The position numbers and the translations under genes are program-made. The notes below the pieces were generated by a model that had not been told where the DNA came from, did no database searches, and saw nothing but the letters and a program-made list of their open reading frames with translations. This document shows, one piece after another, positions 4,785 through 58,887 of a DNA stretch of 58,887 nucleotides; the first letter of the stretch is position 1, and every line of letters starts with the position of its first letter. Source of the stretch: Heterodontus francisci (taxonomy: Eukaryota); assembly GCF_036365525.1 (NCBI RefSeq), contig NC_090379.1:45373923-45432809 (forward strand). Reading direction: 5' to 3'.

Positions 4785-6226
4785 CTGGAATAAAATAGTA
4801 AATACAATTTACAGGCCATATCAAAGACATTTATTTCCCCTCACCCCAGAAACAAGGAGCATTTTGATAAACTATTTTTCCTTTGCTAATTGATCAGAAT
4901 TTTTGAAATGCATGTTTCCCACATTGGGAGCAGTACAATTTTTTTTAAATGCACTAATGGGATATAGGCATCACTAGCCAAGTCAGCATTTATTGCCTGT
5001 CCCTCATTGCCTTTGAAAAAGTTTTGCTGAGTTGCATTCATGAACCACTGCAGTTGACATGGTAAAGTTACTCTCACACTACTATCAGGGAGGGAGTTCC
5101 AAGATTTTGACCCAGCAACAATGAAGGAATGGCAATATATTTCCTAAGTCGGGATGGTGTGTTACCTGGATGTGAACATGGAGGTACTGGTGTTTGTATG
5201 CACCTGCTGCCCTTGTCTTTCTAGGTCATGGATTTCAAATATGCTGTTGAAGAAGCCTTGGCGAGTTGCTGTAATGCATCATGTGGATGCTACACAATGT
5301 AGCCAGGATGTGCCAACGTTTCAGGTGGTGGACGGGATGCTGATCAAGCGGGTTGCTTTGTCCTGGATGGTGTTAAGCTTCTTGAGTGCTGTTGGAGCTC
5401 TACTCATCCATTACGCTCCTGACTTGTGCTTTGTAAATAGTGGAAAGGCTTTGAGGAGTCAGGAAGTGAGTCACATGCCACAGAATACCCACCTCTGACC
5501 TGCTCTTGTAGCCACAGTATTCATGTGGCTGGTCCAGTTAAGTTTCTGGTCAATGCTGACCCCCCAAGATGTTGATGATGGAGGATTTGACGATGGTAAT
5601 GCCATTGAATGTCAAGGAGTGATGTTGGAAATAATCACTGCCCAGCACATGTGTGGTGAGAATGTTAATTGTCACTTATCAGCCCAAGCTGAATGTCGAT
5701 GCACGTGGATATGGACTGCTTCATTATGAGGAGTTGCGAATAGAACCGAACACTGTGCAATCATCAGCAAACATCCCCAACTTCTGACCTTATGATGGAG
5801 CGAAGGTCATTGATGATGCTGATAAAAAAGGGTGGGGTAGGACACCACCATGAAGAACTCCTGCAGCAATATTCTGGGACTGAGATGGCTAGCTTCTAAC
5901 AACCACAAGCTAGGTACGATTCCAGCCAGTGGAGAGCTTTCCCCCTATTCCTATTGTCTTCAATTTTATAAGGGCTCCTTGAAGCCACACATGATCAAAT
6001 GCTGCCTTGATGTCAAGGGCAGTCATTCTCACCTTACCTCTGGAATTTAGCTCCTTCCAAATTTGAACCAAGGCTATAATGACATCTGGAGCCGAGTGGT
6101 CTTGGTGGCACAAACGGAGCATCGGTGAGCAAGTGCCGGATGATAGCACTGTCAACAACACCTTCCCTCATTTTGCTAATGTTTGAGAGTAGGCTGATGG
6201 GGGCAGTAATTGGCCGAATTGGATTT

Positions 6227-7804
6227 CGTAATAAAAGCAAAATACTGCGGATGCTAGAAATCTGAAATGAAAACAAGAAATGCTGGAAATACTCAGCAGG
6301 TCTGGCAGCATCTGTGGACAGAGAAGCAGAATTGATGTTTAAGGTCAGTGACCCTTCTTCAGAACTGGCAAATATTAGAAATGTGAAAGGTTTAAGCAAG
6401 TGAAGCAGCGGTGGGGCAAGAGATAACAAAGGAGAAGATATAGATAGGACAAGGCCACAGAGAATAACCGACATTAGTACAGATAGGGTGTTAACGGACT
6501 GAAAACTGAACAGCCGCAAGTACAAACATGAAAAAAAAAGTGGGTAAGCAAACTGAACAAACTAAGATGAAATAAAATAAAACAAACAAAAAAATATATA
6601 AAAAAGAAAAAAATAACTAAAAAAAAAATAAAATGGGGGGGACCCGTCAAGCTCTGAAATTATTGAACTCAATGTTCAGTCCGGCAGGCTGTAGTGTGCC
6701 TAATCGGTAACTGAGATGCTGTTCCTTGAGCTTGCGTTGATGTTCACTGGAACACTGCAGCAATCCCAGGACAGAGCTGTGAGCATGAGAGCAGGGAGGA
6801 GTGTTGAAATGGCAAGCAACCGGAAGCTCGGAGTCATGCTTTCAGACTGAGTGGAGGTGTTCTGCAAAGTGGTCACCCAGTCTGCGTTTGGTCTCTCCAA
6901 TGTAGAGGAGACCACATTGTGAGCAGCGAATACAGTATACTACATTGAAAGAAGTACAAGTAAATCGCTGCTTCACCTGAAAGGAGTGTTTGGGGCCTGG
7001 GATAGTGAGGAGAGAGGAGGTATATGGGCAGGTATTACACCTCCTGCGAATGGAGGGGAAGGTGCCGAGGTGGTGGGGGTAATGGAGGAGTGGACCAGGG
7101 TGTCGCGAAGGGAACAATCCCTTTGGAATGCTGACAGGGGAAGGGAGGGGAAGATGCATTTGGTAGTGGCATTACGCTGGAGGTGGCGGAAAATGATCCT
7201 TTGGATATGGAGGCTGATGGGGTGGAAAGTGAGGACATGGGGAACCCTGTCGCGGTTCTGGGAGGGAGGGGAAGGGGTGAGGGCAGAGTTGCGGGAAATG
7301 GGCCGGACACGGTTGAGGGCCCTGCCAACCACAATGGGGGGGTGGGGGGTGGGGGTGGAATCCTCGGTTGAGGGAAAAGGAAGACATATCAGAAGCGCTG
7401 TCGTGGAAGGTAGCACAGAGCAGATGTGTCGGAGACAGAGAAACTGGGAGAATGGAATGGAGTCCTTACAGGAGGCAGTGTGTGAAGAAGTGTAGTCAAG
7501 GTAGCCATGGGAGTCGGGCTTATAATGGATATTAGTAGACAGCCTATCCCCAGAGATGGAGACAGAGAAGTCGAGGAAGGGAAGAGAAGTGTTGATGGAC
7601 CATGTAAAGGTGAGAGAAGGGTGGAAATTAGAAGCAAAGTTGATAAAGTTTTCCAGTTCGGGGCAGGAGCAGGAAACGGCACCGATAGAGTCATCAATGT
7701 ACCGGAAAAAGAGTTGGGGGAGGGGACCCGAGTAGGACTGGAACAAGGAATGTTCGACATATCCCACAAAAAGACAGGCATAACTAGGACCTATGCAGGT
7801 ACCC
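6227..7804 (-). mobile_element. 5'-truncated Penelope-like element (RT + GIY-YIG endonuclease + 3' pLTR)
   Basis: RT: MGTCIGPSYACLFVG..FFRYIDD..LPFLDFSV. GIY-YIG with the CCHH motif: RFTCTSFNVVYCIRCSQCGLLYIGETKRRLGDHFAEHL. Frameshifted. Flanked by a 9-bp direct repeat attggattt (6218-6226, 7805-7813). Confidence 0.93.
6327..6368 (-). ncRNA. Degenerate minimal hammerhead ribozyme motif in the Penelope pLTR
   Basis: Minus strand reads ccagtt CTGAAGA a gggtcactgacc ttaaacatc aattctg. The CUGANGA box and stem II are intact, but the GAAA box is mutated relative to the copy at 27664-27706. Confidence 0.6.
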
Positions 7805-10732
7805 ATTGGATTTTGTAATGCTTGTTGTGGACTGGTATAGCACAGGTTTGGAACACAGTTCTCATTAACAAGTGCAGCATGCCCCAGGGACAGTGCTTTA
7901 CACACAGGACATACTTGGGAAATTATCCACTTTGTTGTCCTTGTTGTAGCTGTACTGGAACAGTTTAGTTAGAGGTGCGTTTAGTTCTGGAGCACAAGTC
8001 TTCAGCATTGCAGCCAGGATGTTGTTGGGACCCACAGCCTTTGCTGTATCCAGTGCATACAGCCATGTTTTGATATCACAAGAGTGAATGGAATAGGCTG
8101 AAGACTGGCTTCAGTGATGCTTCGGACCTCAGGAGTCGGCTGAGATAGATCATCCACTTGGCACTTCTGCCTGAAGATGATTGCAAACACTTCAGCCATG
8201 TCTTTTGCACTCACATGCTCGGCTGCACCATCATTGAGGATGGGGATGTTCACAGAGCCTCCTCCCCTCGAGTTAGTTGTTTAATTATCCATCACTGTTC
8301 ACAGCAGAACTGCAGGGCTTTGATCTGATCCATTGGTTGTGAGATCGTTTAGCTCTTGATATGGCATGGCTGCTTCTGCTGTTTAGCAGGCATGCAGTCC
8401 TGTATTTTAGCTTGACCAGGTTGGGATCTCACCTGGTGCTGCTCCTGGCATTCTCCCCTACACTCCTCAATGAACCAGGGTTGGTTCCCTGGCTTGATGG
8501 CAATGTTAGAGTGAGGAAAATGCCAGGTCATGAGGTTGCAAATTCTCAGGGAATACAATTCTGCTGCTGCTGATAGCCCACAGTACCTCATGGATGCCCA
8601 GTTCTGAACTGCCAGATGTGTTCTCAATCTTTCCTATTTAACATAGCGCTAGTGCCACACAAGATGGAAGTTATCCTCAGTGTGAGAACAGGACTTTGTC
8701 TCCACAAGGACTGGGCGGTGGTCATTCCCACTTTGGCGTAGTGGTTTGATACAGTTATGGATAGATATAACTGGGAAAGTAGATTGGTGAGTCAGAGGTC
8801 AAGTAGATTTTCCCTCGTGCTGGTTCTCTCACCACCTGCCACAAGCCCAGTCTGGGAGCTAGGTCTTTCAGGAGTCGGTCAGCTTGGTCAGGAACGATAC
8901 TATGGGGCCACTCTGGGCAATGGGCTTTGAGGTCCCCACCCAGAGTACATGCTGTGCTCGCTGCTTCTCCAAGTGGTGCGCAACCTGAAGCAGTACTGAT
9001 TCATCAGCTGAGGGAGGACGGTTGAGGGTGGTAACCAACAGGAGGTTTCCTTGCCTATGTTTGACCAGATGCCTTAAGACTTCAGGGGGTCCAAAATCAA
9101 TGTTAAGGACAAATCCTCACAACTGTATACCACCGAGCTGCCACCTCTGGTGGGTCTGTCCTGCTGGTGGGACAGGACATACCCAAAGATGGTGATGGAA
9201 GAGTCTGGGACATTGTTGAAAGGTATGTTTCTACGAGTGTGGCTATGTCAGAATGATGCTTGACTAGTTTGTGGGATACCTTTCCCAATTTTGGCATAAG
9301 TCTCCAGATGTTAGTGAGGAGGACTTTGCAGGGTTAACTGATCTGGGTGTACCTTTGTCGTGCCCAAATCCAATGGCAGGATCAATGCCATGTGATCCGT
9401 CCTGTTTTATTCTCAACAAACTTTGTCGTAGTGGTTTGGTACAACTGAGTGCCTGCAAGGCCATTTCAGTGGACAGTTAAGAGTTAACCACATGACTGTG
9501 ATCACATTGGGTAAGGATGGCAGATTTCCTTCCCTAAAGGGTATTAGTGAACCAGATGTTATTTTTTGAACAATCCAGTAGTTACATGACAACTGATACT
9601 CGCTTTTTATTCCAGATTTATTTAAGTAACTGAATTTAAATTCATTGCCATGGTGGAATTTGAACTCATGCCTCTGGATCATTACTCCAGGACTCTGGAT
9701 TACTAATCCAGTAAGGTAACTATTTTGCATTACTAGTCCAGCAGCATAACCACTATGCTACCATTCCCTCTGAGAAAGTTTATAGATTGAGGGTGACATT
9801 AATGGACTTTAGTAGCCTCTGAAGACTTCCACTTAGTAGCAAAGTTGATAAGTTTTGTCACATATTAGGAGGGGACCTGAAACTTGAATTTTGAGGCTGC
9901 ACCATATTTCCACTGCAATTTCAGGGAGCCACTAGGAACTTGGCTCGTATAATACGGTGCAGACACTAGATCATGGATGCCTTGTTTGTCAGGGCCAATC
10001 CATACATTGTCTTCTGAATGTTTGCTAGGGAGCAGCAAGCATGTGCCCTTGAATCTTACATTTTGTGTGCCCAAAATGCAAGGTGTAATAGAATGAACTT
10101 ATGTAAGCATATGTGCTCCCACAGAGAGGAGTGGCCCTTACAGGAATAAAAAAAAATGCATTTGTCCATTAAGGTCAAGCAAATGTGATTATATAGGTGA
10201 ATGACAGGTTCCATCAGACAATCAACCATTCCACCTGTGTTTGAAGAAGCAAGAGCTCTGCAGTTTCACAAAGTCAGGACCTGATCTGCCCAACAAATTG
10301 TGAACTGAGAAGCTTTTTATACTGAATTGTGCTAGATGGAAAGTTGATGGTGGAAAATTAACATTCTAATATATCTATGGTATAAATACATTAAATATAG
10401 ATTAGAGATGCAAAGTAACTTGTACTATTTATTAAATTCAACTTACATTAAAATGTCTTTATGTAAGCTTCCCACCACTTGTAAAACCTTGTGTGTAGTC
10501 TTGTGCAAGCTACAATTCAACAGGTCAAGGCATATTTAGTGAACCCTTTTAAACATTCCTGGAAGAAGGCGTGTTTTACATTGCAAGTACTATTCTCTCA
10601 CTTCCTAAGATGAAGTTTCCTTGAATTTAGCCAAAATAACATTTTAAAATAAATATTTAAGTGCATCATTTACCTACTTCCCTGAAGTGCCTTAAGTTTA
10701 ACCACATGGCATTTAACTTTTAAGGAAGAGCA

Positions 10733-15354: not shown

Positions 15355-15706
15355 TTTTAGTTTAGTTTAGAGATACAGCACTGAAACAGGCCCTTCGGCC
15401 CACCAAGTCTGTGCCGACCATCAACCACCCATTTACACTAATCCTACACTAATTCCATATTCCTACCACATCCCACCTGTCCCTATATTTCCCTACCACC
15501 TACCTATACTAGGGGCAATTTATAATGGCCAATTTACCTATCAACCAGCAAGTCTTTGGCATGTGGGAGGAAACCGGAGCACCCGGAGGAAGCCCACGCA
15601 GACACAGGGAGAACTTGTAAACTCCACACAGGCCGTACCCAGAATTGAACCCGGGTCGCTGGAGCGGTGAGAATGCGGTGCTAACCACTGCGCCACTGTG
15701 CCGCCC
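15355..15706 (-). mobile_element. HE1-like V-SINE, full length
   Basis: Complete head to (ctaaa)n tail. Inserted into the family A LINE; gaatt occurs on both sides. Confidence 0.93.
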
Positions 15707-17124
15707 TGTGAATTCCCAGCATCTGACCTGCTCTTGTAGCCACAGCATTTACATGGCTGGTCCAATTCAGTTTTTGGTCAATGGTAACCTCGAGGATGTT
15801 GATAGTGGGGGATTCAGTGATGGTAATGCCATTGAACATCAAGGGAAGATGGTTAAATTCTCTCTTGTTGGAGATAGTCATTGCCTGGCACTTGTGTGGT
15901 GTGAATGTTACTTGTCACTTATCAGCCCAAGCCTGGATATTGTCCAGGTCTTGCTGCATATGGACATGGGCTGCTTCAGTATCTGAGAAGTCACAAATGG
16001 TGCTGAACATTGCACAATCAGCAGCGAACATCCACATTTCTGACCTTACGATTGAAGGAAAGTCATTGATGAAGCAGTTGAAGATAATTGGGCTTCGGAC
16101 ACTACCCTGAGGAACTCCTGCACTGATGTCCTGGGACACTTGATTGACCTTCAACAACCACAACCATCTTCCTTTGGTTGACTCCAACCAGCGGAGAGTT
16201 TTCCCCCCGATTCCCATTAACTTCAGTTTTGCTAGGGCTCCTTGGTCAAATACTGCCTTGATGTCAAGGGAAGTCACTCTCATATCACCTCTGAAGTTCA
16301 GCTCTTTTGTCCATGTTTGGACCAAGACTGTTATGAGGTCAGGAGCTAAGTGGCCCTGGCAGAACCCAAACTGAGCATCAGTGAGCAGGTTACTGCTGAG
16401 CAGGTGTCACTTGATAGCACTGTCGACGACCCCTTCCATCATTTTCCTGATGATCAAGCATAGACTAATAGGGCGGTAATTGGCCGTGTTGGACTTGGCC
16501 TGCTTTTTGTGTGCAGGACATACCTGGGCAATTTTCCACATTGCCGGGTAGATGCCAGCGTTGTAGCTATACTGGAGCAGCTTGACTAGGGGCGCAGCTA
16601 GGTCTGGAGCACAGGTCTTCAGTACTATTGCCGGAATATTGTCAGGACCCATAGCCTTTGTAGTATCCAATGCCTTCAGTCATCTTGATATCACACGGAG
16701 TGAATCGGATTGGCTGAAGACTGGCATGTGATGCTGGGGATCTCGGGAGGAGGCCGAGTTGGATCATCCACTTGGCAGTTCTGGATGAAGATCATTGCAA
16801 ATGCTTCACCCTTTTCTTTTGCACTGATGTGCTGGGCTCCCCCATCATTGAAGGTAAGGATATTTGTGGAGACACCTCCTCCGGTTGGTTGTTTAATTGT
16901 CCACCAACATTCACGATGGGTGGCAGGAATGCAGAGCTTAGATCTGATTCCACTGGTTGTGGAATCGCTTAGCCCTGTCCATTGCATGCTGCTTCCACTG
17001 TTTGGCATGCAAGTAGTCCTGCGTTGTAGCCTCACCAGGCTGACACCTCATTTTTGGATATGCCTGGTGTTGCTCCCGGCATGCCCTCCTGCACTCTTCA
17101 CTGAACTGATCTAATTGATGCACT

Positions 17125-22435: not shown

Positions 22436-23185
22436 TTTTTAAAAATTCTTTCATGGGATGTGGACTTCACTGGCAAGTCCAGCATTTGTTGCCCATCCCT
22501 AATGGCCCTTGAGCTCAGCAGCTTGCAAGGTTATTTCAGAGGGCAGTTAAGAGTCTGTGGGTCTAGAGTCACATGTAGGTCAGACATGTAAAGACAGCAG
22601 ATTTTCTTCCCTAAAAGGACATTAGTTAACCAGATGGTTCAAATCCCACCACGACAACTGATGGTAGTTTCATGGCACCATTACTGAGACTAGGGTTCAA
22701 TTCCAGATTTTTCAGAGTCATACAGAGATACAGCACTGAAATAGGCCCTTCAGCCCACCTAGTCTGTGCCGACCATCAACCATCCATTTATACTAATCCT
22801 ACATTAATCGCATATTCCCTACCACATCCCCACCTTCCCTCAATTCTCCTATCACCTACCTACACTAGGGGCAATTTACAATGGCCAATTTACCTATCAA
22901 CCTGCAAGTCTTTGGCTGGGGAGGAAACCGGAGCACCTGGCGGAAACCCACACGGTCACAGGGAGAACTTGCAAACTCCGCACAGGCAGTACCCAGAACC
23001 AAACCCGGGTCGCTGGAGCTGTGAGGCTGTGGTGCTAACCACTGTGCCGCCTAATTAATGTTATTAATTAATTGAACTTAAATTCTACCAGTTGCCGTGG
23101 TGGGATTTGAACCTGTGTCCCCAGGGCATTGCCCGGGCCTCTGGATTACCAATCCAGTGACATTACCACTACGACATCATCTCCC
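22436..23185 (-). mobile_element. tRNA-headed SINE sharing both its 5' region and its 3' tail with the family A LINE
   Basis: Head gggagatgatgtcgtagtggtaatgtcactggattggtaatccagaggcc..ggttcaaatcccacca (A and B boxes), body homologous to 9440-9650, tail aagggccattagggatgggcaacaaatgctgg..cccatgaaagaat. Interrupted by an HE1-like SINE. Confidence 0.85.
22724..23051 (-). mobile_element. HE1-like V-SINE
   Basis: Near full-length match to the other copies. ORF 22672..23058 is its antisense translation. Confidence 0.92.
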
Positions 23186-27325: not shown

Positions 27326-27572
27326 TGAGGAAGACTTTCAACGTTGTTGCATTCTCAATATTGACTGGTTGCTCTGTGATCGATTGCTGTTGTTTTACCA
27401 ATGTTTCAGTCCCACTTCAAACAAAGTCCAATCCTGCACACTCTATTTACAGGCATACTTGTCACTGGGGCGTACAGAGATGGAACTGATGAGAATTGCG
27501 GCAGATGCCATCCTAACAATCTTCTCTTCTCGCTACCAAAGGAATGAATAGGATGAAGCAAGATGTTGATAC

Positions 27573-27803
27573 AAAAACAAGAAATGCTGGAACCACTCAG
27601 CAGGTCTAGCAGCATCTGTGGAAAGAGAAGCAGAGTTAACGTTTTGAGTCAGTGACCCTTCTTCGGAGTTCCGAAGAAGGGTCACTGACCCGAAACGTTA
27701 GCTCTGCTTCTCTTTCCACAGATGCTGCCAGACCTGCTGAGTGGTTCCAGCATTTCTTGTTCTTATTTCAGATTTCCAGCATCCGCAGTATTTTTCTTTT
27801 ATT
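27573..27803. mobile_element. Palindromic non-coding Penelope-derived mini-element
   Basis: 95-bp inverted arms (27573-27667 / 27670-27764, about 5 mismatches) plus a 39-bp extension, homologous to the pLTR at 6230-6368. Perfect 14-bp TSD caagatgttgatac (27559-27572, 27804-27817). Confidence 0.92.
27664..27706 (+). ncRNA. Minimal type-I hammerhead ribozyme motif (PLE-type)
   Basis: Stem I CGGAGUU/AGCUCUG; core CCGAAGA (U4C variant) plus an extra A; stem II GGGUC-ACU-GACCC; GAAA box; palindromic ACGU stem III. Predicted cleavage after GUU at 27699. Confidence 0.72.
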
Positions 27804-28260
27804 CAAGATGTTGATACCCCCGCTTTGGGCAGAATCTGGAAGTGCACAAAAAAAGGGCACAGATCTGGTGTTAGCAGATTGCTCTACATTGCTCTCCATT
27901 GATAATGACAGCTTAGCATTACCATGGGTCATGAATTTCAGGGAAACCCACCTTCACTACCAAATTAATTTTCTTACAGCACCAGCCAGCACTATACAAG
28001 CGTAGTATGACCTTAAAACATGATTACATGCTGAAGGGTCACCTTCAGCAAGATGGACAAATAGAAATACCTTTTCTTCTCCCAAAGAATTAACAGAAAA
28101 CTACAGTTCAAGTCAGGCCAAGGATAACCATACAGCAAACAGAGCTGGAACAAATCAGGAAAAGTAAACTTCCCTTGTTTGTTAAAATGTTGTAGTTATA
28201 GTACCACAAAATATTAAAGGTCTTTGAGAGCATCTGAATCCTTGAATAACTGTAACAGAT

Positions 28261-30484
28261 TTTTTTTATTCATTCATGGGATGTGGGCGTCACTGGCTAG
28301 GCCAGCATTTATTGCCCATCCCTAATTGCCCTCTAGAGGGTGGTGATGAGCTGCCTTCTTGAACCGCTGCAGTCCATGTGGGGTAGGTACACCCACAGTG
28401 CTATTAGGAAGGCAGTTCCAGCATTTTGACCCAGCGACAGTGAAGGAACGGTGATATAGTTCCAAGACAGGATGCTGTGTGGCTTGGATGGGAACTTGTA
28501 GGTGTTCCCAAGTATTTGCTGCCCTTGTCCTTCTAGGTGGTAGAGGTCACGGGTTTGGAAGGGGCTGTCGAAGGAGCCCTGGGCGTGTTGCTGCAGTGCA
28601 TCTTGTAGATGGTACACACTGCTGCCACTGTGTGTCGATGGTGGAGGGAGTGAATGTTTGTGGATGGGGTGCCAATCAAGCAGGCTTTGTTTTGGATAGT
28701 GTCGAGCTTCTTGAGTGTTGTTGGAGCTGCGCCCATCAGGCAAGTGGATGGTATTCCATCACACTGCTGACTTCTGCTTTGTAGGTGGTGGACAGGCTTT
28801 GGGGAGTCAGGTGGTGAGTTACTTGCCACAGGATTCCTAGCCTCTGACCTGCTGTTGTATTTATATGGCTACTCCAGTTCAGTTTCTGGTCAATGGTAAT
28901 CCCAGGATGTTGATAGTGGGGGATTCAGCAATGGTAATGCCATTGAATGTCAAGGGGAGATGGTTAGATTCTCTCTTGTTGGAGATGGTCATTGCCTGGC
29001 ACTTGTGTGGCGCAAATGTTACTTGCCACTTATCAGCCCAAGCCTGGATATTGTCCAGGTCTTGCTGCATTTCTACACAGACTACTTCAGTATCTGAGGA
29101 GTCACGAATGGTGCTGAACGTTGTGCAATTATCAGCGAACATCCACATTTCTGACCTTATGATTGAAGGAAGGTCAATGATGAAGCAGCTGTAGATGGTT
29201 GGGCTTAGGACAATACTCTGAGGAACTCCTGCAGTGATGTCCTGGCGTTCAGATGATTGACCTCCAACAACTACAACCATCTTCCTTTGTGCTAGGTATG
29301 ACTCCAACCAGCTGAAAGTTTTCCCCCTAATTCCCATTGACTCCAGTTTTGCTAGGGCTCCTTGATGCCATACTCAGTCAAATGCTGCCTTGATGTCAAG
29401 GGCTGTCACTCTCACCTCATCTCGAGTTCAGCTCTTTTGTCCATGCTTGAACCAAGGCTGTTATGAGGTCAGGAGCTGAGTGGCCCTAGCAGAACCCAAA
29501 CTGAGCGTCACTGAGCAGGTTATTGCTAAGCAAGTGCTGCATGATTAGATTAGATTAGATTAGAGATACAGCACTGAAACAGGCCCTTCGGCCCACCGAG
29601 TCTGTGCCAAACATCAACCACCCATTTATACTAATCCTGCACTAATCCCATATTCCTACCAAACATCCCCACCTGTCCCTATATTCCCCTACCACCTACC
29701 TATACTAGTGACAATTTATAATGGCCAATTTACCTATCAACCTGCAAGTCTTTTGGCTTGTGGGAGGAAACCGGAGCACCCGGAGAAAACCCACGCAGAC
29801 ACAGGGAGAACTTGCAAACTCCACACAGGCAGTACCCGGAATCGAACCCGGGTCCCTGGAGCTATGAGGCTGCAGTGCTAACCACTGCGCCACTGTGCCG
29901 CCCATGATGGCACTGTTGATGACACCTTCCATCATTTTACTGATGATTAAGAGGAGACTGCTGGGGCGGTAATTGGCCGGGTTGGACTTGTCCTGCTTTT
30001 TGTGTACAGGACATACTTGGGCAATTTTCCACATTGCCAGGTAGATGCCAGTGTTGTAGCTGTACTGGAACAGCTGGCTAGGTGCAGCAAGTTCTGGAGC
30101 ACAGGTCTTTAGTACTATTGCCGGAATATTGTCAGGGCCTATAGCCTTTGCAGTATCCAGTGCCTTCAGTCGTTTCTTGATATCATGTGGAATGAATCGA
30201 ATTGGCTGAAGTCTGGCATCTGTGATGCTGGGGACTTCAGGAGGAGGCCAAGATGGATCATCAACTCGGTACTTCTGGCTGAAGGTTGTTGCAAATGCTT
30301 CTGCCTTATCTTTCTGTGGGTCTAGAGTCATATGTAGGTCCAGACCACGTAATCTACCATTAGTGAAGCAGATGGGTTCCAAATTTATTGAGTTCAAATT
30401 CCACCTTCTGCTGTGGTGGGATTCGAACCCATGTCCCCAGAGCAATTCCCTGGGTCTCTGGATATAATACGGCACCGACTCCCC
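28261..30484 (-). mobile_element. Family A LINE, internally deleted copy (tRNA head joined to the RT half)
   Basis: Well-preserved RT ORFs 29705..30535, 28879..29337 (GVPQSIVLSPTIYSCFIIDL..MFADNC) and 28533..28829. Intact 3' tail at 28261. Head/body remnant at ~30314-30484 with B-box gggttcgaatcccacca. Confidence 0.9.
29543..29903 (-). mobile_element. HE1-like V-SINE, young full-length copy
   Basis: (ctaat)n tail; catgat repeated at both junctions (29540-29545, 29903-29908). Confidence 0.95.
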
Positions 30485-35955: not shown

Positions 35956-37900
35956 TTTAAAGCTGAGTTCCAGCACATCCCCACATATATTGCAGAAAGC
36001 TGATAAACTAAATTGGAAATGCTGCCTGGAGTATTAAGAAAAATTTACCATTATAACACTGAAAACAATGAATAATTTCCTGTGAGACAAGATAGCTGCC
36101 AGAATGTCATAAAGAGGAAATTATGGACAGCATTACTATAACTGATGAGGCACTTCTTCCCTACAATGGCATTTAGACCTGCTTTAGCCAACAGCCACAC
36201 TAATTAGGCCATGAAACAATGGCATAAAAGCTGATTAATGATGTGACATTTTAAGGAAATTAAGTCTTTTGGACTTCAACGTTAACAACATGTCTGACCT
36301 TTATTATATGAAAATAAAATGCAAAGCATTATTCACTGGTTATGTTCACCGAATAACTGATTATCCCAGACAATAATTTACATTTGCAGCTCTTCTTAAG
36401 ACAATTAAAAGGCTTGGTATTTTTATGCCATTGTACTAAACAAAACCATTGTCACTGGTTGCAGAACAATCTATTTTAAGCAAAAAACATGCTATACATG
36501 GATGAAAGAAATTTCACAACTGAAAAGTACTGCAGCATTCACCACCGCCCCCCAAAAAAAATTTCCATTGTCATTAAGATGCAAAAAAAAAAGCACTTAA
36601 TACAGCATCATAATGTTGTATTCTTATATTTGGTAAGATGCTGCCAGACTACTAATTTTTGCATTACCATGCTCACGCAAGTATGTGGTTTCATCTGTTT
36701 ATATCTTGTAATTTATGCATTTATGACCCTAATATCAAAATGCTTCAGTTCAGTTAATAATAAGAAAATTCACTATGCAGATTGTTTAAGCTCTCCTTTG
36801 GATAATTATATCTTGCCAAGATATTAAATATTAACAAGGTTGCAAATCATTAAAACCTAGGAAGCAGAATCAGTCAGCAAACTACTGTCCATGAAATATT
36901 GCTCTATTCTGCAAGTGGGCAGAAATAAAATCCTTATTCCTTACCATTTTTTGTCTGAATATACCTCTGTTAAGCACCTTGAAACATTTCTTTCTTTATT
37001 AAAGGTGCTATATAAATGCAAGTTGTTACTGCTACCATCTTCACTAAATAATGCTGGAAGTAATGTAGACACAGATTGATTCTCTGCTTCATATTTTTGT
37101 TTAAGTCCTCTGAGGGAGGAAAGAAGAGGACTTTGTAAAGTTATTTTCTACCTCCTGCCCCAAGTATTTTGTTTTGAAGAAATAGATCATTTGCTCGTTT
37201 ACTAGCAGAAGAAATTGCTGTTTTTTTAAATCACTAACTGGTGCAAACCAACCATGTTGGATCTCTTAACCAGCAGAACAGAACTCTACTGGTGTAAGCA
37301 GTGGGTCTGGCAATGAGACAAGCACTGTGATTCTTCGTCACTGTATTTAATTACTTTATTTTAAAACTTTCTCCACTATATATTATTAAGATTTAGTATT
37401 TAGATAAAATAGAATTACATTGTCATGGCACTTCAATGCAAAACTCATTTGTTTTGAAAAATTAAATTTTCAGCTAGAAGAATATTTTTCAGGAATGTAT
37501 TAGGTTAGCTGTCCTTTCTGCTCTCAGATCTGGGTTTGAATCTAGTCTAAAATGATGGCATAAAAGTCTCCTCTGAAGGCAATTTTAAAAAATAAAGTCA
37601 AACGAAATAAACTTGACTATTTGAAAATAATTTGTAGCACCCGTTCAGTTATCTTCCCATAAAGTTTGATCAAAAGTTTTCCTTATTTGCCAAAGCTATA
37701 CCAGAGACTAATTTAATTTAGTCAATCCTTCAAAGTGGATAGAGCCAGTGGAATTTATACTGCTCTCTAAAAATGTACTTTACATTAGCTTACTAGAGTT
37801 CTGGAAACCCATAGTACACTATAGTTACCTCCACTGCTACAGTAGTGTTCTGTTCTTGCAGAGATGAACTAATAAGCAAAGAGATAAAGAATTAATTGAC

Positions 37901-38004
37901 TTTAGATTAGAGATACAGCACTGAAACAGGCCCTTCGGCCCACCGAGTCTGCGCCGAACATCAACCACCCACCCATACCAATCCCACACCAATCCCACAC
38001 TCCC
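37901..38004 (-). mobile_element. 5'-truncated HE1-like SINE
   Basis: Only the 3' ~100 nt are present (agagatacagcactgaaacaggcccttcggcccaccgagtct). Confidence 0.85.
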
Positions 38005-38171
38005 ACTCAGACTTATGTCTGAGTTTATGCTAAATTTATGGCCATAGAAGATTATTGGCATACAATCTTGTTCTGTGCTACAGTATAGTGGGCTGTTCTT
38101 CATTTTGAGTCAGGAGCAATGCACCGACAAACTAATAAATGTTCCACCTGTTCAGGTTAGTAGCTCATGCT

Positions 38172-46018: not shown

Positions 46019-46416
46019 GCAAGGAACAATCTAAAGTAGAAATTCTAAATTGGAAGTGGGCTAACTTCAATGGGATGAGAAGAGATCCAACCAGGGCAAA
46101 ATGGAACCAAAGACTGACTAGAAAAACTGTAATAAAGCAATTGGTGATCTTTAAGGAGGGGATGTTTCAAATAGAGGCTAGGTACATTCGAACAAGGGTG
46201 AAAGGCAAGTGAATCAACCTCAGGACTCCTTGGATAATTAGGGAGATAGAGAATATGAAACAAAAAAAAGATGGTGTATGATGCACGCCTGGTGAATTCT
46301 CCAAGCAAAAGCCAGGCCAAATACAATAAGTTGAGAGGGAAAGTGAAGAGGAAAATAAGACTGGCAAAGAATATGAGAACAGAATGGCAGTTAACAAAAA
46401 AGGAAGCCAGAAATTT

Positions 46417-46516
46417 GAGTTCTAACAAAAGGCCACAGACCTGCAAAGTTAACTCTATTTCTCTCTCCACAGATGCTGCCAGATCCGCTGGGTATTTCCA
46501 GCACTTTGTTTTTATT
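46417..46516 (+). mobile_element. Degenerate Penelope pLTR / hammerhead fragment
   Basis: gagttctaacaaaaggccacagacctgcaaagttaactct..ctctccacagatgctgccagatccgctg aligns with 27665-27765. Both catalytic boxes are mutated. Confidence 0.75.
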
Positions 46517-48979
46517 ACTCAAAAATCATCCACTAGCATGTAAATAGTAAGCTGGTAGTAAGAGGCAGGGTAGGGCCTATTAGGGGCAAAGGTGGTGATA
46601 TATGTTTTACAGGCGCACGGCAAGGCTAGAATAATTAATGAGTACTTTGTATCAGTGTTTACTAAGGAAGAGGATGCTGATAAAATAGTGGTAGAAGCTG
46701 AGATGGTAGAGGTAATGGATGGGCTGAAAATTGATAGGCAGGGTGTACTGAAAGGCTGGATACACTCAGATTGGATAAGCCACCTGGTCCTGGTGGTTTG
46801 CATCCCAGGTTGCTAAATGGAGTGGAGATAACAGAAGGGCTTGCCATAATCTTCCAATACTCCCTAGATATGGGGGAGGTGCCAGAAGATTGGAGGGTGG
46901 TAAATGTGACACTCTTATTTAAGAAAGGGTGTAAAGGACATTGCTAGTAACTACAGGTCGGTCAGTTTAACATTAGTGGTGGGTAAGCTTTTAGAAACAA
47001 TAATAAGGGAAAAAACCAACAGGCACTTAGAAAGGTTTGAGTTAAAAAAGTTAGATAGTGCTTGACTAATCTAATTTGATTTTTTGATGGCGTAACTGAG
47101 AAGGTTGATGAAGGGAATACAATGGATGTTGTCTATATAGATTTTAAGAAAATGTTTGACAAAGTACCATATAAAAGGCTGGTTAACACAATTGAGGCTC
47201 ATTGATTAGGAGGGTTCATGTCAGCTTGGATAAAAAAATTGGCTTAAGGACAGAAGTTGTGGAAAATGGCTGTTTTTCCAACTGGAGGATGGTAGGCACT
47301 GGCGTTCCCCATGGATGAGTGCTAGCACCACTGCTTTTTTGATATATAGAAATGACTTGGATATTGGAATAGACAGTAAAATCTCACAATTTGCCATTGA
47401 TACCAAACTTGGAGGAGTGGCAAACAGTGACGATGATACAAATCAACTGCAACAGGACACAGACTAGCAGAATGGGCAGACAAGTGGCAAATGAAATTTA
47501 ATGAAGAGAAGTGTGAAGTGATGCATTTTGGCAGAAGGGATAGGGAGAGGTAATATAAACTAAATGGCACAGTTCTAAAGAGTGTGCAGGGACAGAGGGC
47601 CTTGGAGTCCATGTGCATAAATCCTTGAAGGTGGCAGGACATATTAAGAGAATAGTTAGAAAAGCTTATAGGACCTTGGGTTTCATAAATAGAGGTACTG
47701 AGTACAGAAGCAGGAAAGTTACACTGACCCTTTATAAAGCTCTAGTTACCCATAACAAGAGTACTGCATCCACTTCTGGTCACCACACATTGGGAAATAT
47801 GTGAGGGTCTTTGTCGGGGTGCAGAGGAAGTTTACCAGAATGGTTCTAGGGATGAAAGATTTTAGCTACAAGGTTAGGTTGGAGAAGCTGGGGTTGTTCT
47901 CCTTGAAGCAAAGGAGATTGAGGGGAGATTTGATAGAGGTATACAAGATTATGACAAGTTTAGATAAGGTAGACAAAGAACAGCTGTTCTCAGTAGCTGA
48001 TGGTACAAGTACGCAGGGACACAGATTTAAGGCTTTGGGCAAGAGATGTGGGGGAGATATGAGGAAGAACTTTGACGCAATGAGTGGTAATAAAACTGGA
48101 ACTGGCTGTCTACAAGAGTGGTGGAAGTGATTAATGATTTCAAAAGAAAACTGGATGGGCACTTGAGGGAAATAAGCTTGCAGGGCTATGGTGATAAGAG
48201 TGGGGGAATTGGACTACCTGAATTGCTCTACAGAGTGCCAGTATGGACTTGAGCTGAATGGCCTCCTTCTGTGCCACAATGACTATATATTTAGGTTCTC
48301 TACTGAGGTAGTCATCACATTAGAGACTTCTTTGAGAAAGTAACGAAATTCCAAGGATACAGAACTCCCAGAGATCTGTACTGGGAACATTTTTATTATT
48401 TCACTTTGTTTTTTAGACTTAATATGAAGCTTTTTAATGATGAAATTGTTCCGCTTGGAAGGGACAAAATTTCATAAACTTGGAGAAGACAGTGCAGCAC
48501 TTGATATTGAAAATATCTACGCATATTTAAACCATAAACTGTGCAGTAAATCATAAAGGACACCACGTGGCTACCAGCGAATTATGAAAGTTTGATGATC
48601 TCACAATGGCTTCCACCCAATTGGTGTTGCTTAATCAGCAGCATATGGCTATTAGATAGGACCTCCTGAATTAGGTAGAATTCCCTAATTAAATGTAACA
48701 GCTTCTCTTATTTCCCACATTTTCAGCATGTCGAAGAAATATCAATTCCCATTGACTGCATGTCATTCCCAGGATTACACACCAACCAACACTGCACTCT
48801 GTAAAGTGCACTTAAGATTAATAAAGTGAACTGTCACTGTAATGCATGATTCACCCACCCACAATGATAACAATCCAATTACACCAACAGTTGGAGAGAA
48901 TGTTTCATTTCATTTTAAACATTATTCTGCTTTCCTTCAGTTGAACTAAAAAAATCTTCTTGTTCTTCTGGGTAAGAAT

Positions 48980-54683: not shown

Positions 54684-55038
54684 ATTAGATTAGATTAGAG
54701 ATACAGCACTGAAACAGGCCCTTCGGCCCACCGAGTCTATGCCGACCATCAACCACCCATTTATACTAATCCTACACTAATCCCATATTCCTACCAAACA
54801 TCCCCACCTGTCCCTATATTTCCCTACCACCTACCTATACTAGTGACAATTTATAATGGCCAATTTACCTATCAACCTGCAAGTCTTTTGGCTTGTGGGA
54901 GGAAACCGGAGCACCAGGAGAAAACCCACGCAGACACAGGGAGAACTTGCAAACTCCACACAGGCAGTACCCAGAATCGAACCCGGGTCCCTGGAGCTGT
55001 GAGGCTGCAGTGCTAACCACTGCGCCACTGTGCCGCCC
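54684..55038 (-). mobile_element. HE1-like V-SINE, young full-length copy
   Basis: Nearly identical to 29543-29903; (ctaat)n tail. Confidence 0.95.
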
Positions 55039-55433
55039 TTCCTGTATCTTCCTGTAGTCTACAGCCATCATCCTCGCTACCTACTACATGACCAATCTTT
55101 GTGTCATCTGCAAACCTCTTGATTATACCACAAAAAGCAGAGGACCCAGTACTGAGCCCTGTGGAACGCCACCAAAAACAGCCCTCCCCGTTGCAAAAAC
55201 ACCCGTCAACAATTACTCTTTGTTTCCTGCCACTGAGCCAATTTTGTATCCACCTTGCAACATTTCCCTGAATCCCATGGGCTTTTATCTTTTTAAGCAG
55301 TCTGCCATATCAAGGCTTCTCAAAAGCCTTGCTAAAATCCATGTAGACCACATCAACTGCACTATACTCATCAATCTTCCTTGTTTCTTCGAAAATGTTG
55401 ATCAAGTTGGTCAAACAAGATCTTCCCTTCACA

Positions 55434-55783
55434 GGCGGCACAGTGGCGCAGTGGTTAGCACTGCAGCCTCACAGCTCCAGGGACCCGGGTTCGATTCCGG
55501 GTACTGCCTGTGTGGAGTTTGCAAGTTCTCCCTGTGTCTGCGTGGGTTTTTTCCGGGTGCTCCGGTTTCCTCCCACAAGCCAAAAAGACTTGCAGGTTGA
55601 TAGGTAAATTGGCCATTATAAATTGTCACTAGTATAGGTAGGTGGTAGGGAAATATAGGGACAGTTGGGGATGTTTGGTAGGAATATGGGATTAGTGTGT
55701 AGGATTAGTATAAATGGGTGGTTGATGTTCGGCACAGACTCGGTGGGCCGAAGGGCCTGTTTCAGTGCTGTATCTCTAATCTA
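55434..55783 (+). mobile_element. HE1-like V-SINE, young full-length copy
   Basis: ggcggcacagtggcgcagtggttagc (A box), ggttcgattcc (B box), V-domain, ctaat tail. Confidence 0.95.
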
Positions 55784-58050
55784 AAATCCATGCTGACTAT
55801 CCTTGATTAATCTGTGCCCTTCTAAGTGACATAGAGAAGCTAGCAGAATGGGCAGATAAGTGGCAAATGAAATTTAATTAAGACAAGTGTGAAGTGATGT
55901 ATTTTGACAGAAAGGATGGGGAAAGGTCATATAAAGTTAATGGCACAGTTCTAAAGAGTGTGCAGGGACAGAGGGCCCTGGGGGAGTATGTGCATAGATC
56001 TTTGAAGATGGTAGGATATATTGAGAAACTGGTCAGCAAAGCATATGGCCACTTGGGCTTCATAAATAGAGGCATTAAGTACAAAAGCAGGGAAGTTATG
56101 CTGAACTTTTATAAAGCTCTGGTTAGACCACAACCCGAGTGCTGTATCCAGTTCTGGTGACTACACTTTGGGAAGGATGTGAGGGTCCTTAAGAGGGTGC
56201 AGGGGAGGTTTGCCAAAATGATTCGAGGGATGAGAGATTTTAGCTGCAAGGTTAGGTTGCAGAAGCTGGGGTTGTTCTCCTTGGAGCAAAGGAGATTGAA
56301 GGGAGATTTGATAGAGGTGTACAAGATTGTGAAAAGTTTGGATAAGGTACAGAAAGAAAAACTATTCCCATTAGCTGACTTAGGGACACAGATTTAAGGT
56401 TTTGGGGAAGCAATGTAGGGGAAATGTGAGGAAGTACATTTATACAATATACATTTTATAATGACCTGGACCACTCTGCCCATGAGGGTGCTGGAGGCAG
56501 AGACAATCAATGATTTCAAAAGAAATTGGATGGACATTTGAAGGAAATAAACTTGCAGGACTACGGGAATAAAGCAGGGAAATGGGACTGACTGGATTAC
56601 TCTGCGGAGAACGGGCATGGACTTGAATGGCCTCCTTCAATGCCATAAATAACTGAGTCATATTTGTTCTTCTACCTCTTTCTGACTGTTTGAGGTTCTA
56701 TTTACTCCCAGCAATGTGACTGCCCCTTTTTGTTCCTCAGTTCAACCCATTTTTGATCATTTGGTGATCCTTCTAGCATATCATCTCTCCTCACAGTTGT
56801 GATTGTTTCTTTAACCAATATTGTGACCCCCACCCTTCTTTTTTTTAATCTCCCTCTCTATCCCTTATCTAGCAACGTTAAGCTGCTAATCCTGTCCTTC
56901 GTTAAGCCACATTTCAGTAATTGCCATATCATACTTCCATGTGTCAATGTGCCCTCAGCTCATCTGCCTTATTCATTAGGCTCCATGCACTGAAGTACAA
57001 TCATTGAACATCTCCTTTGTTGTCTATTTTCTAGCCTTTGTTCCCTCTGCTGTCCATACTCGCCGACAAATTTTCTGCCATCCATTCTTCTGTATTCATC
57101 TATAGTTTTGTCACAAACCAAGTTTCTTCCATAATATTCAAAACACTTCCACAAATATTTGATGAACTCGAGCGTCACCTATAAAGCCCGACGATTATAG
57201 AAACTCACACCAGTGACTAGACAATGTAGTGGCTAGAACACTGTATTTTCACCTCTGGAAAATGGGATTCAATCCAGCCCAGACTGGGTCCCATGGAAAA
57301 CAGAAATGCAGTAGGGAGTGGGGGCGCACGGACTGGAGGAGGAGGTGGCGCAGCAGCATGTGAATGGGAGGACGGCCTGGGAGGTATGGATTGAGGGATG
57401 GGATGGCATGGGGGTTGGGGGTGGGATGGCATAGGAAGAAGGGGTGGAATGGGGATGATATAAGAGGGATGAAAGGAGTGGGAAGGGTATGGCATGGGAA
57501 GGATGGGGATTAAAAGGAGTACTGTTGCAATAAAAATACTAATTTCACTGCAAATATTTTGCAGGACTTTGTTAGTCTTAATTAAAAGACACTTTATTTT
57601 ACAGTGTTGCCATTGACAGCAGCACAATTTCTACAAAAGTGCCACAATGAAACTCAGGTTACACTGTAGCTTCTAGGGAACCATTCTGAAGAGATGATAT
57701 TCAGCTGTTCCTCAGGAGGCAGCTGTACCATTGGCAGCAAATGTAAACTGGAAGCTTTTGGTGGAGCGTGGCATCACAATTCTTGACCATTTAGCCCAAC
57801 ACTACAGGTTAGTGATGTCGTTTTACCTCATGGCCACAATTGTAAATCATGATTACAACTTTCAAGTAAATACATGTATAACTGTGTATATACTATTCTG
57901 CAACGATGTTTTTGTATTGCCACTGATACTATTAACTTAACTCTGCGATGTAAATGTTGCCAGAAATTAGGTTTTCTAACTCTACACCAAATCATAAGGT
58001 GAACTATTAAATAAACTACCTGACTCAGACATGGAAGGTCATGCATGGAA

Positions 58051-58264
58051 CAAAGTTAGAAATAGCTGGAAACACTCAGGTCAGGCAACATCTGTGGATA
58101 AAACAGACAAAACAATGTGAATATGGCTCCTTCCTCAAAACTGAGTCCTGAAAAAGGATCTGTACTCAAAATGTGTTGTCTGTTCTCTCCATAGATGCTG
58201 TCTGACCTGGTAAATGTTTAGAGCTTTCTGTTTCAGATTTTCAGCACATGCAGTATTTTGCTTT
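58051..58264. mobile_element. Older palindromic Penelope-derived mini-element
   Basis: Same layout as 27573-27803 (gctggaaacactcaggtcaggcaacatctgtgga .. tccatagatgctgtctgacctgg .. ttcagattttcagcacatgcagtattttgcttt) but much more diverged. Confidence 0.75.
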
Positions 58265-58625
58265 ACAAAGTGATTCCTGACAACGCTGGCCGCCACTGAC
58301 ATCATCAGGCTGCGCCGCGGTGCGCACATGCGCAGACGGTCTCCTGCTCTCGGCGCAGGCGCTGCGTTCTAGCTTGCCAGGACTGGTTAGCGCATGTGCC
58401 GATGCGGGACGTCTGCATCTTCGGGCAACAGGCCTGATTGGCCTTTGCACATGCACTTTATGCAACGCCAACAGGTATTCATGCATGCGTCAAGCTCCGG
58501 CGCGAGTTTCTGAAAGTGGAAGGAGGAACGGTTTTGTCGGCCATTTTCTCGCAATTATTCAGTCGTTTTGAAGATTTCAGTCTGCTTCATTTTTTATCAG
58601 AAAGAGGAGATTGCTCCAAGGTACG

Positions 58626-58875
58626 TTGCTCTGAAAACATTTCCATTGTCTGGGGCACTGCCTGTGTTCCAGTCCACTGCACTGCACTAAAATCCTTTCC
58701 ATTGTCAGGGACTGTGTGCAGGCAGTACATGTGCTCCAGTCCCTGTTGTAAATTGCTCTGAAAACATTTCCATTGTCTGAGGCACTGCATGTGCTCCAGT
58801 CCACTGCACTGAAATCCTTTCCATTGTTTGAGGCTGTGTGCAGGCAGGACATGTGCTCCAGTTCCTGTTGTAAGT
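58626..58875. repeat. Tandem repeat, ~125-bp unit, two copies, each made of two related subunits
   Basis: ttgctctgaaaacatttccattgtctg recurs at 58626 and 58753; tttccattgt..gtg(c/t)tccagt occurs four times. Confidence 0.85.
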
Positions 58876-58887
58876 TTCTCTGTTCCA

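Follow-up and report, generated by a model that had tools for sequence, protein, structure and literature searches.

We analysed a 58,887-nt stretch of the Heterodontus francisci genome (NC_090379.1, positions 45,373,923 to 45,432,809; hereafter the window) and found within it a 231-bp palindromic insert (27573-27803) which is probably a dead-on-arrival, extremely truncated and inverted insertion of a retrotransposon, namely a Penelope-like element (PLE): a one-off, made at a hotspot, and a fairly young integration product. The insert lies between direct repeats forming a perfect target site duplication (TSD) of 14/14 positions, with its left copy at 27559-27572 and its right copy at 27804-27817. 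When pairs of 33-nt zones lying 245 bp apart were drawn at random from the same window, an exact 14-mer was shared by chance in 80 of 200,000 trials. The two arms (27573-27667 and 27670-27764) match at 90/95 positions across a 2-nt spacer, with a best ungapped core of 88/92, and the insert RNA is predicted to fold with an energy of -184.4 kcal/mol (z -27.3), a stability attained by none of 200 shuffled sequences. These results uphold the outline given in a preliminary description of this DNA, namely a palindromic insert of 231 bp with a perfect 14-bp TSD and a 95-bp inverted repeat with a 2-nt spacer.

The arms differ at five positions, three changed in the left arm and two in the right, and a CpG transition is among them; one of the three left-arm differences was polarised by the GAAA consensus rather than by the parent element. 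The pattern is as from neutral, independent decay of the arms after insertion. It is relevant to the idea that the palindrome arose only after insertion, through DNA repair or template switching at a replication fork, or that it is an error of assembly, as long palindromes are generally known to be on occasion. Both seem most improbable given that the arms differ at 5/95 sites including the CpG transition, that the TSD brackets both arms exactly, that the part missing from one arm equals the known PLE tail, and that a second, much older example is present in the window.

The source of both arms could be traced to the 3' end of a PLE. The forward portion, 137 nt on the plus strand (27667-27803), is identical at 123/137 positions to 6366-6230 on the minus strand, and the inverted pLTR arm, a tail-less PLE 3' end of 95 nt on the minus strand (27573-27667), is 88% identical to 6270-6363. 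The forward arm begins at an AG dinucleotide, 4 nt before hammerhead position C3, and a single A (27667) is common to both arms. The matching region belongs to a 5'-truncated and frameshifted PLE on the minus strand (6233-7804), which was delineated by tblastn with the homologous protein P0002, by Pfam and by its own TSD of 15 bp (6218-6232 and 7805-7819, 14/15 identical). This copy retains the C-terminal half of the reverse transcriptase (RT), a degenerate Cys linker, the GIY-YIG endonuclease (EN) region and the 3' end, where a decayed hammerhead is found (C3 at 6362). P0002, which contains the Pfam domains RVT_1 and GIY-YIG, aligns to it at 60% (7806-7093) and 63% (7048-6653) identity with an E value of 1.7e-119; the GIY-YIG Pfam match of the window copy itself (E 0.0047) is under the cut-off. 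The forward arm and this copy end at the same base, and the origin in a Penelope pLTR that had been proposed from the letters alone is borne out by the match of the forward arm to the end of an RT/GIY-YIG copy. Judged by these alignments, the copy at 6233-7804 is a relative of the insert's parent. It sits inside a LINE copy, and about 85 bp (7820-7904) separate its right TSD from the point at which LINE homology resumes.

Searches with the open reading frame at 6976-7812 (minus strand) retrieved 108 proteins among 615 candidates, and the best named homologues, which are 52-70% identical, come from whale shark, stingray, manta, bamboo shark and skates. A Cys-rich, Zn-finger-like linker between RT and EN, described in the consulted part of PMC8557442 as a mark of the Neptune and Nematis clades, is present in P0002, and its first Cys is degenerate in the window copy. 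As the vertebrates surveyed in the available portion of a recent preprint (bioRxiv 10.64898/2026.07.22.740005) yielded only Neptune and Poseidon, the linker of P0002 makes it likely that the parent PLE is Neptune-type.

The insert contains each component of a PLE insertion: the 3' end of a GIY-YIG element, an inverted 5' copy, a one-sided tail of 39 nt (27765-27803, plus strand, forward arm only) and a TSD. In the account given in PMC8557442, the 5' end of a PLE insertion is often taken up by an inverted, 5'-truncated copy, and a tail of 30-40 bp is confined to one of the two ends; a 30-40-nt tail also features in the relevant section of PMC11167929. In Adineta, the inverted pLTR is described as overlapping the direct one and being 37 bp shorter, with a 31-bp tail, palindromes at the junctions and TSDs of 8-10 bp (PMC3846280). 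The same head-to-head copy, one-arm tail, long TSD and junction palindrome recur in the inverted pLTRs of EN+ PLEs as these are described in the parts consulted of four papers, namely Penelope of D. virilis, Pen2a and Pen3a of Adineta vaga, and the Naiad, Neptune and Poseidon elements (PMC3846280, PMC8557442, PMC2377424, PMC8969392). Unlike those, the insert has neither an ORF body nor an upstream pLTR between its arms, and both of its arms end at the 5' edge of the ribozyme. It is, on this comparison, the smallest form of the known PLE layout. The earlier suggestion of an extremely truncated inverted PLE insertion is accordingly supported by parent homology, by the shared 3' end, by the one-sided tail and by the size of the TSD.

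A long inverted repeat of small size might equally bring to mind a MITE or foldback DNA transposon, or else a gene for a hairpin RNA such as a miRNA, and the insert does match mir-3202 with an E value of 1e-8. Against this, both arms stem from retrotransposon 3' ends, the 39-nt one-sided tail keeps the inverted repeat from being terminal, and the 14-bp TSD resembles the 15 bp of the neighbouring PLE; TSDs of DNA transposons are usually shorter than 14 bp. We give such an origin scarcely any credence. The mir-3202 match itself was rejected, since at 52.7 bits it is 37 under the gathering threshold of 90 and scores equally on both strands, as a generic hairpin would.

A minimal type I hammerhead-like motif was identified on the plus strand at the centre of the palindrome (27664-27706) by core scanning and folding. 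Its stem I joins 27664-70 to 27700-06 in 7 bp, two of them G-U pairs; the core (27671-77) has a U4C substitution and is followed by an extra A at 27678; stem II is of 5 bp (27679-83/27687-91), with G12 at 27692; and the predicted scissile bond is 27699/27700. Stem III consists, as had been noted before, only of the self-complementary ACGU (27695-98). The copy on the minus strand (27631-27673) is degenerate, with U4C, with G12A at a CpG site (27645), and with a stem I that is broken beside the core, leaving 1 bp and then a 2x2 mismatch. Both cores thus read CCGA in place of CUGA, and GAAA with G12, U16.1 and H17 is present on the plus strand whereas the minus strand has G12A. G12 is the general base of the hammerhead according to the section consulted of PMC6155905. 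A strict CUGANGA scan of both strands of the whole window gave no match, and one when C4 was allowed; when the window was compared with Rfam at E<=1, four matches resulted, none of them to a hammerhead family, and the recognition by hammerhead models to which the preliminary description had looked was therefore not obtained. Its claim of a hammerhead core on each strand holds in so far as the plus-strand motif is near-complete, but the minus-strand motif is degenerate and neither is canonical. In the same way the centre of the palindrome does supply the outer 3 nt of the 5' strand of stem I, which come from the inversion, but not the remaining AGUU (4/7 nt), which was inherited from the parent with its 4-bp stem I.

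Folded alone, the 43-nt plus-strand motif has mean pair probabilities of 0.94 for stem I and 0.996 for stem II. Within the whole element both values fall to 0.0, and the hammerhead fold inside the full palindrome carries a penalty of 53.5 kcal/mol; for an RNA starting at the palindrome centre, they are 0.62 and 0.92. Because the arms are arranged head to head, the antisense arm is transcribed first from either strand and would trap the ribozyme. The free minimum-energy fold of two 43-mers is not a double hammerhead, and the ACGU duplex adds only -1.7 kcal/mol; there is also no intact same-strand hammerhead partner within the window. The substitution at position 4 is found on both arms, from which it follows that the template already had U4C. 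The four older arms have T here, which might make U4 the ancestral base, but the position belongs to a CpG, and 3/4 CpG sites have changed in the long copy. All 56 motifs in Fig. S3 of PMC4209133, none of which is from cartilaginous fish, have U4, and in the part of PMC3088659 that we consulted U4C lowers activity considerably in vitro while viroid infectivity is kept. These features suggest that the ribozyme is likely inactive. With moderate confidence we regard the ribozyme as a passenger, in that the junction is not its product and it would not fold in a read-through transcript.

The motif is otherwise like the metazoan minimal hammerheads described in the accessible portion of PMC4209133 in the additional residue that separates position 9 from 10.1, its G10.1-C11.1 pair, its 5-bp stem II, its palindromic stem III stub, its U17 and its short stem I. 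The insert differs from them in having U4C and in the spacing of its two cores, which are ~4 nt apart. Dual minimal hammerheads on opposite strands are reported there for Schistosoma, at distances of about 100-700 bp. A further parallel is PAc, the Poseidon element of Anolis carolinensis, for which the relevant sections of PMC11167929 place a hammerhead ~100 nt upstream of where RT begins and a tail in the stretch between two RT start sites, both as in the insert, and describe the cutting and extension of both target strands. PAc belongs to another clade, the shark homologue P0002 having the Cys-rich RT-EN linker of Neptune/Nematis type. Past the predicted cut, at 27700-27803 on the plus strand, we observed a pyrimidine tract and CAG, with an ATG immediately after them and an open frame of 27 codons that runs to the end of the tail. 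The pLTR plus tail of PLEs often encodes the start of an ORF, and this frame may be the parent's N-terminus.

The preliminary description had raised the possibility of a retrozyme-like family. If the insert were a retrozyme, its own hammerheads would have cut out the unit, which would then have formed a circle and been reinserted from the circular RNA. The insert is indeed short, non-coding, derived from a pLTR and hammerhead-like, its isolated 43-nt plus-strand motif folds, and its ACGU is self-complementary. Non-LTR retrozymes share the first of these characters, being short, non-coding, related to pLTRs and probably moved by PLEs (PMC7229834 and bioRxiv 10.64898/2026.07.22.740005, in the parts consulted); the preprint reports them in one chondrichthyan genome. 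They are, however, direct tandems with complete same-strand ribozymes and circular RNA, the arrangement that defines the class, whereas the insert is head-to-head with damaged and trapped cores. It has U4C on both arms and G12A on one, its antisense arm traps the motif from either strand, and its ends are unlike the cut site at 27699/27700. The retrozyme idea was consequently dropped as very unlikely.

Four PLE-derived insertions are present in the window, three of which are short. The first of the other two short ones is an older head-to-head element (58051-58264; centre at 58143) with a forward arm that starts from AG at 58144 and has the tail, and an inverted arm that does not. Its arms are 76% complementary around a 1-nt spacer, and the alignment score of 55 was reached by none of 2000 shuffles; a candidate 9-bp TSD (58050-58 and 58265-73) matches at only 8/9 positions. 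The existence of a second, older element of the same architecture, as claimed previously, is thereby confirmed apart from this imperfect TSD. Its forward arm is identical to 27667-27803 at 93/121 aligned positions. The other is a solo, tail-less short copy on the plus strand (46416-46518) that breaks into a LINE reading frame. It too has its start at this AG (46418), and it is identical to the 27667-27803 arm at 79/101 aligned positions; a weak candidate TSD of 9 bp (46407-15 and 46519-27) matches at 6/9. Its end is ~5 nt at most from the beginning of the inverted arm, a position that a second RT start would predict. This third short insertion with the same start strengthens the view that such elements are a recurring product.

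Three of the four insertions, which differ in subfamily or age, therefore have a common start at the same AG, 4 nt before C3 (27667, 58144 and 46418), and the inverted arms of the two palindromes reach positions -1 and -5. Clustering of starts to this degree has P = 2e-5, 5e-4 and 2e-3 under three null length distributions, values to be read as those of a post hoc test on three cases. The base before the AG is G in all three short forward arms and C in the long copy. The common start suggests that the AG is a fixed 5' boundary. The inversion point had been said to coincide with the ribozyme, and it does lie at the 5' edge of the motif but not at its cleavage site; we rejected cleavage as the maker of the 5' end and of this boundary because the junction is 32 nt upstream of the predicted cut. 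An RT stalled by the ribozyme fold should, we infer, stop on its 3' side and not at this boundary. Our leading guess is that the AG boundary is set at the RNA level, as a transcript start or as the end of a pLTR intron. For D. virilis, the section consulted of PMC4209133 puts the end of the pLTR intron where helix I has its 5' end. As a splice acceptor, the AG has pyrimidines at 14/20 upstream positions and a branch-like motif 14 nt upstream; six other YAG sites in the same stretch, with 12-15/20 pyrimidines, are as good, and a splice-acceptor origin of the boundary is a guess.

For the insertion itself we propose the following course. The PLE GIY-YIG endonuclease would nick the two strands of the target with a stagger of 14 nt. 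A cDNA would be primed at the end of the tail by the bottom-strand 3'-OH, and the top-strand 3'-OH would prime a second cDNA at an internal start that lies 39 nt further in. The template of the second cDNA was probably a second RNA, which double priming needs because the arms cover the same sequence. Both cDNAs would halt at a preferred boundary, no more than 5 nt upstream of hammerhead C3; they would be joined through a 1-nt overlap (the shared A) and then filled in. Priming from both nicks is the idea of L1 twin priming. What the shared 3' end, the lack of the 39-nt tail in the inverted arm and a TSD sized like the 15 bp of the parent copy support is a truncated, inverted PLE insertion. We lean towards double priming as the origin of the inverted arm, and keep snap-back of the first cDNA at a 4-nt loop as a tentative second choice. 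For junctions of this kind, self-priming on an antisense template was favoured in the part of PMC3846280 that we consulted. With purified anole PLE, both target strands are cut and extended, RT starts at two sites that bracket the tail, and an element with a dead ribozyme inserts equally (PMC11167929, sections consulted). Two variants of snap-back were tried and discarded: one through stem I complementarity alone, which would leave one core in the loop and not two, and one at the parent's CAG-TT-CTG micro-palindrome, which reproduces neither junction exactly.

Random 5' truncation does not explain the common AG start in 3/4 insertions, and this counts against our preferred reading, since families spread from a master copy have a fixed start. 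The insert could instead be a copy of a non-autonomous, palindromic, SINE-like parasite of PLEs, whose master arose once through the inversion proposed above and has since been transcribed and recopied whole by PLE RT/EN; such a parasite would retain no more than the ribozyme region and the sites at which RT starts. This would account for the same start in three of the four insertions, for the same layout occurring twice in 59 kb, for a young copy with a perfect TSD and for the G before AG common to all three short copies. There are precedents in the non-autonomous PLE derivatives that exist in Chlamydomonas (PMC8557442) and, among animal retrozymes related to PLE pLTRs, in the pLTR-derived retrozymes of Xenopus (bioRxiv 10.64898/2026.07.22.740005), as far as the consulted parts of these sources go. 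Yet neither the details of the junction nor the sequence of stem II agree between the two palindromes, which are therefore not copies of one master; with their differing junctions, and as members of different subfamilies or ages (93/121), they would call for at least two masters. The solo copy has the same start without any inversion, no internal promoter was identified (no eukaryotic model having been applied), RT would have to cross a hairpin of about -175 kcal/mol, and de novo PLE insertion already yields such a layout. We consider a palindromic parasite, though it is the main rival reading, doubtful on balance.

A bolder version, which we rate as more doubtful still, would place in elasmobranch PLEs an RNA-level boundary, fixed where the hammerhead has its 5' edge, from which minimal units of ribozyme plus tail are repeatedly spun off, with the head-to-head form as a self-propagating palindromic SINE-like family across sharks. 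The inversion would extend stem I from 4 to 7 bp, the antisense arm would switch the ribozyme off, and the hairpin RNA would survive as a template for PLE RT.

Gene models from two sharks bear on the possible spread of the repeat. The horn shark model P0109 contains the forward-arm segment (43/48 residues), and the position and phase at which the repeat enters it fit an acceptor at the AG. The start of the whale shark model P0111 fits the junction type, with L and Q as expected, better than it fits the parent, over four residues only; these junction-compatible residues are weak evidence for a palindromic family and weakly suggest that the junction type recurs in another species. In both models, a peroxidase and what looks like a TLE/groucho-like protein, the repeat is translated into the N-terminus, which is probably an annotation artefact or exonisation. 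The open frame across the junction had one match among 46 candidates when compared with longer proteins in the databases, two among 1.84 billion representatives, and none among proteins of similar length. None of these protein matches shows the junction at the DNA level, and core position 4 is a synonymous site there. Pattern scans of GTDB genomes and blastn against phages and plasmids gave 0 copies, a result that is uninformative for the copy number of a shark repeat; within the window this exact junction has one copy. A literature search whose coverage leaves out most subscription papers found no description of shark PLE hammerheads, nor of a hotspot where junctions gather at the ribozyme's 5' edge, and the family may already be catalogued.

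Taken as one locus, the insert is repeat DNA of an ordinary kind; it is of value as a natural record of how PLEs make inverted ends and of the part that the hammerhead plays in their cycle. Were thousands of copies in sharks to have this start, the boundary of the copied RNA would lie at the 5' edge of the ribozyme and not at the cut site. Should the common start hold, it would also separate double priming from snap-back and define a minimal 137-nt substrate for in vitro PLE assays. The movement of a young copy in spite of U4C on its two arms also agrees with the in vitro finding that insertion does not require cleavage. If transcribed, the insert would give a double-stranded hairpin of roughly 92 bp, and copies, if abundant, would supply shark transcripts with long double-stranded RNA.

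The surroundings of the insert are themselves rich in repeats. The self-repeated share of the window is ~41%, mostly LINE fragments with RT domains, which we take to be CR1/L2-type. Pfam was run on 77 of the 86 ORFs of at least 70 aa outside self-repeats, the nine omitted ones overlapping the PLE; none of the 77 gave a Pfam match, and no host exon was found in the window. A young SINE-like family, presumably resembling the elasmobranch HE1/V-SINE type, is represented by ~7 copies that are up to 98% identical (392-727, 15357-15707, 22712-23061, 29549-29910, 37895-38008, 54684-55039 and 55426-55791). The last two of these are inverted with respect to each other, with ~400 bp between them, and might pair into a long hairpin. 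A weak tmRNA match on the minus strand at 30414-30458 (15.3 bits against a gathering threshold of 47) covers a stretch that is like a tRNA T-arm and is probably a SINE head. Judged by eye, the end of the window (58620-58887) holds tandem repeats that are imperfect and have units roughly 60-120 bp long.
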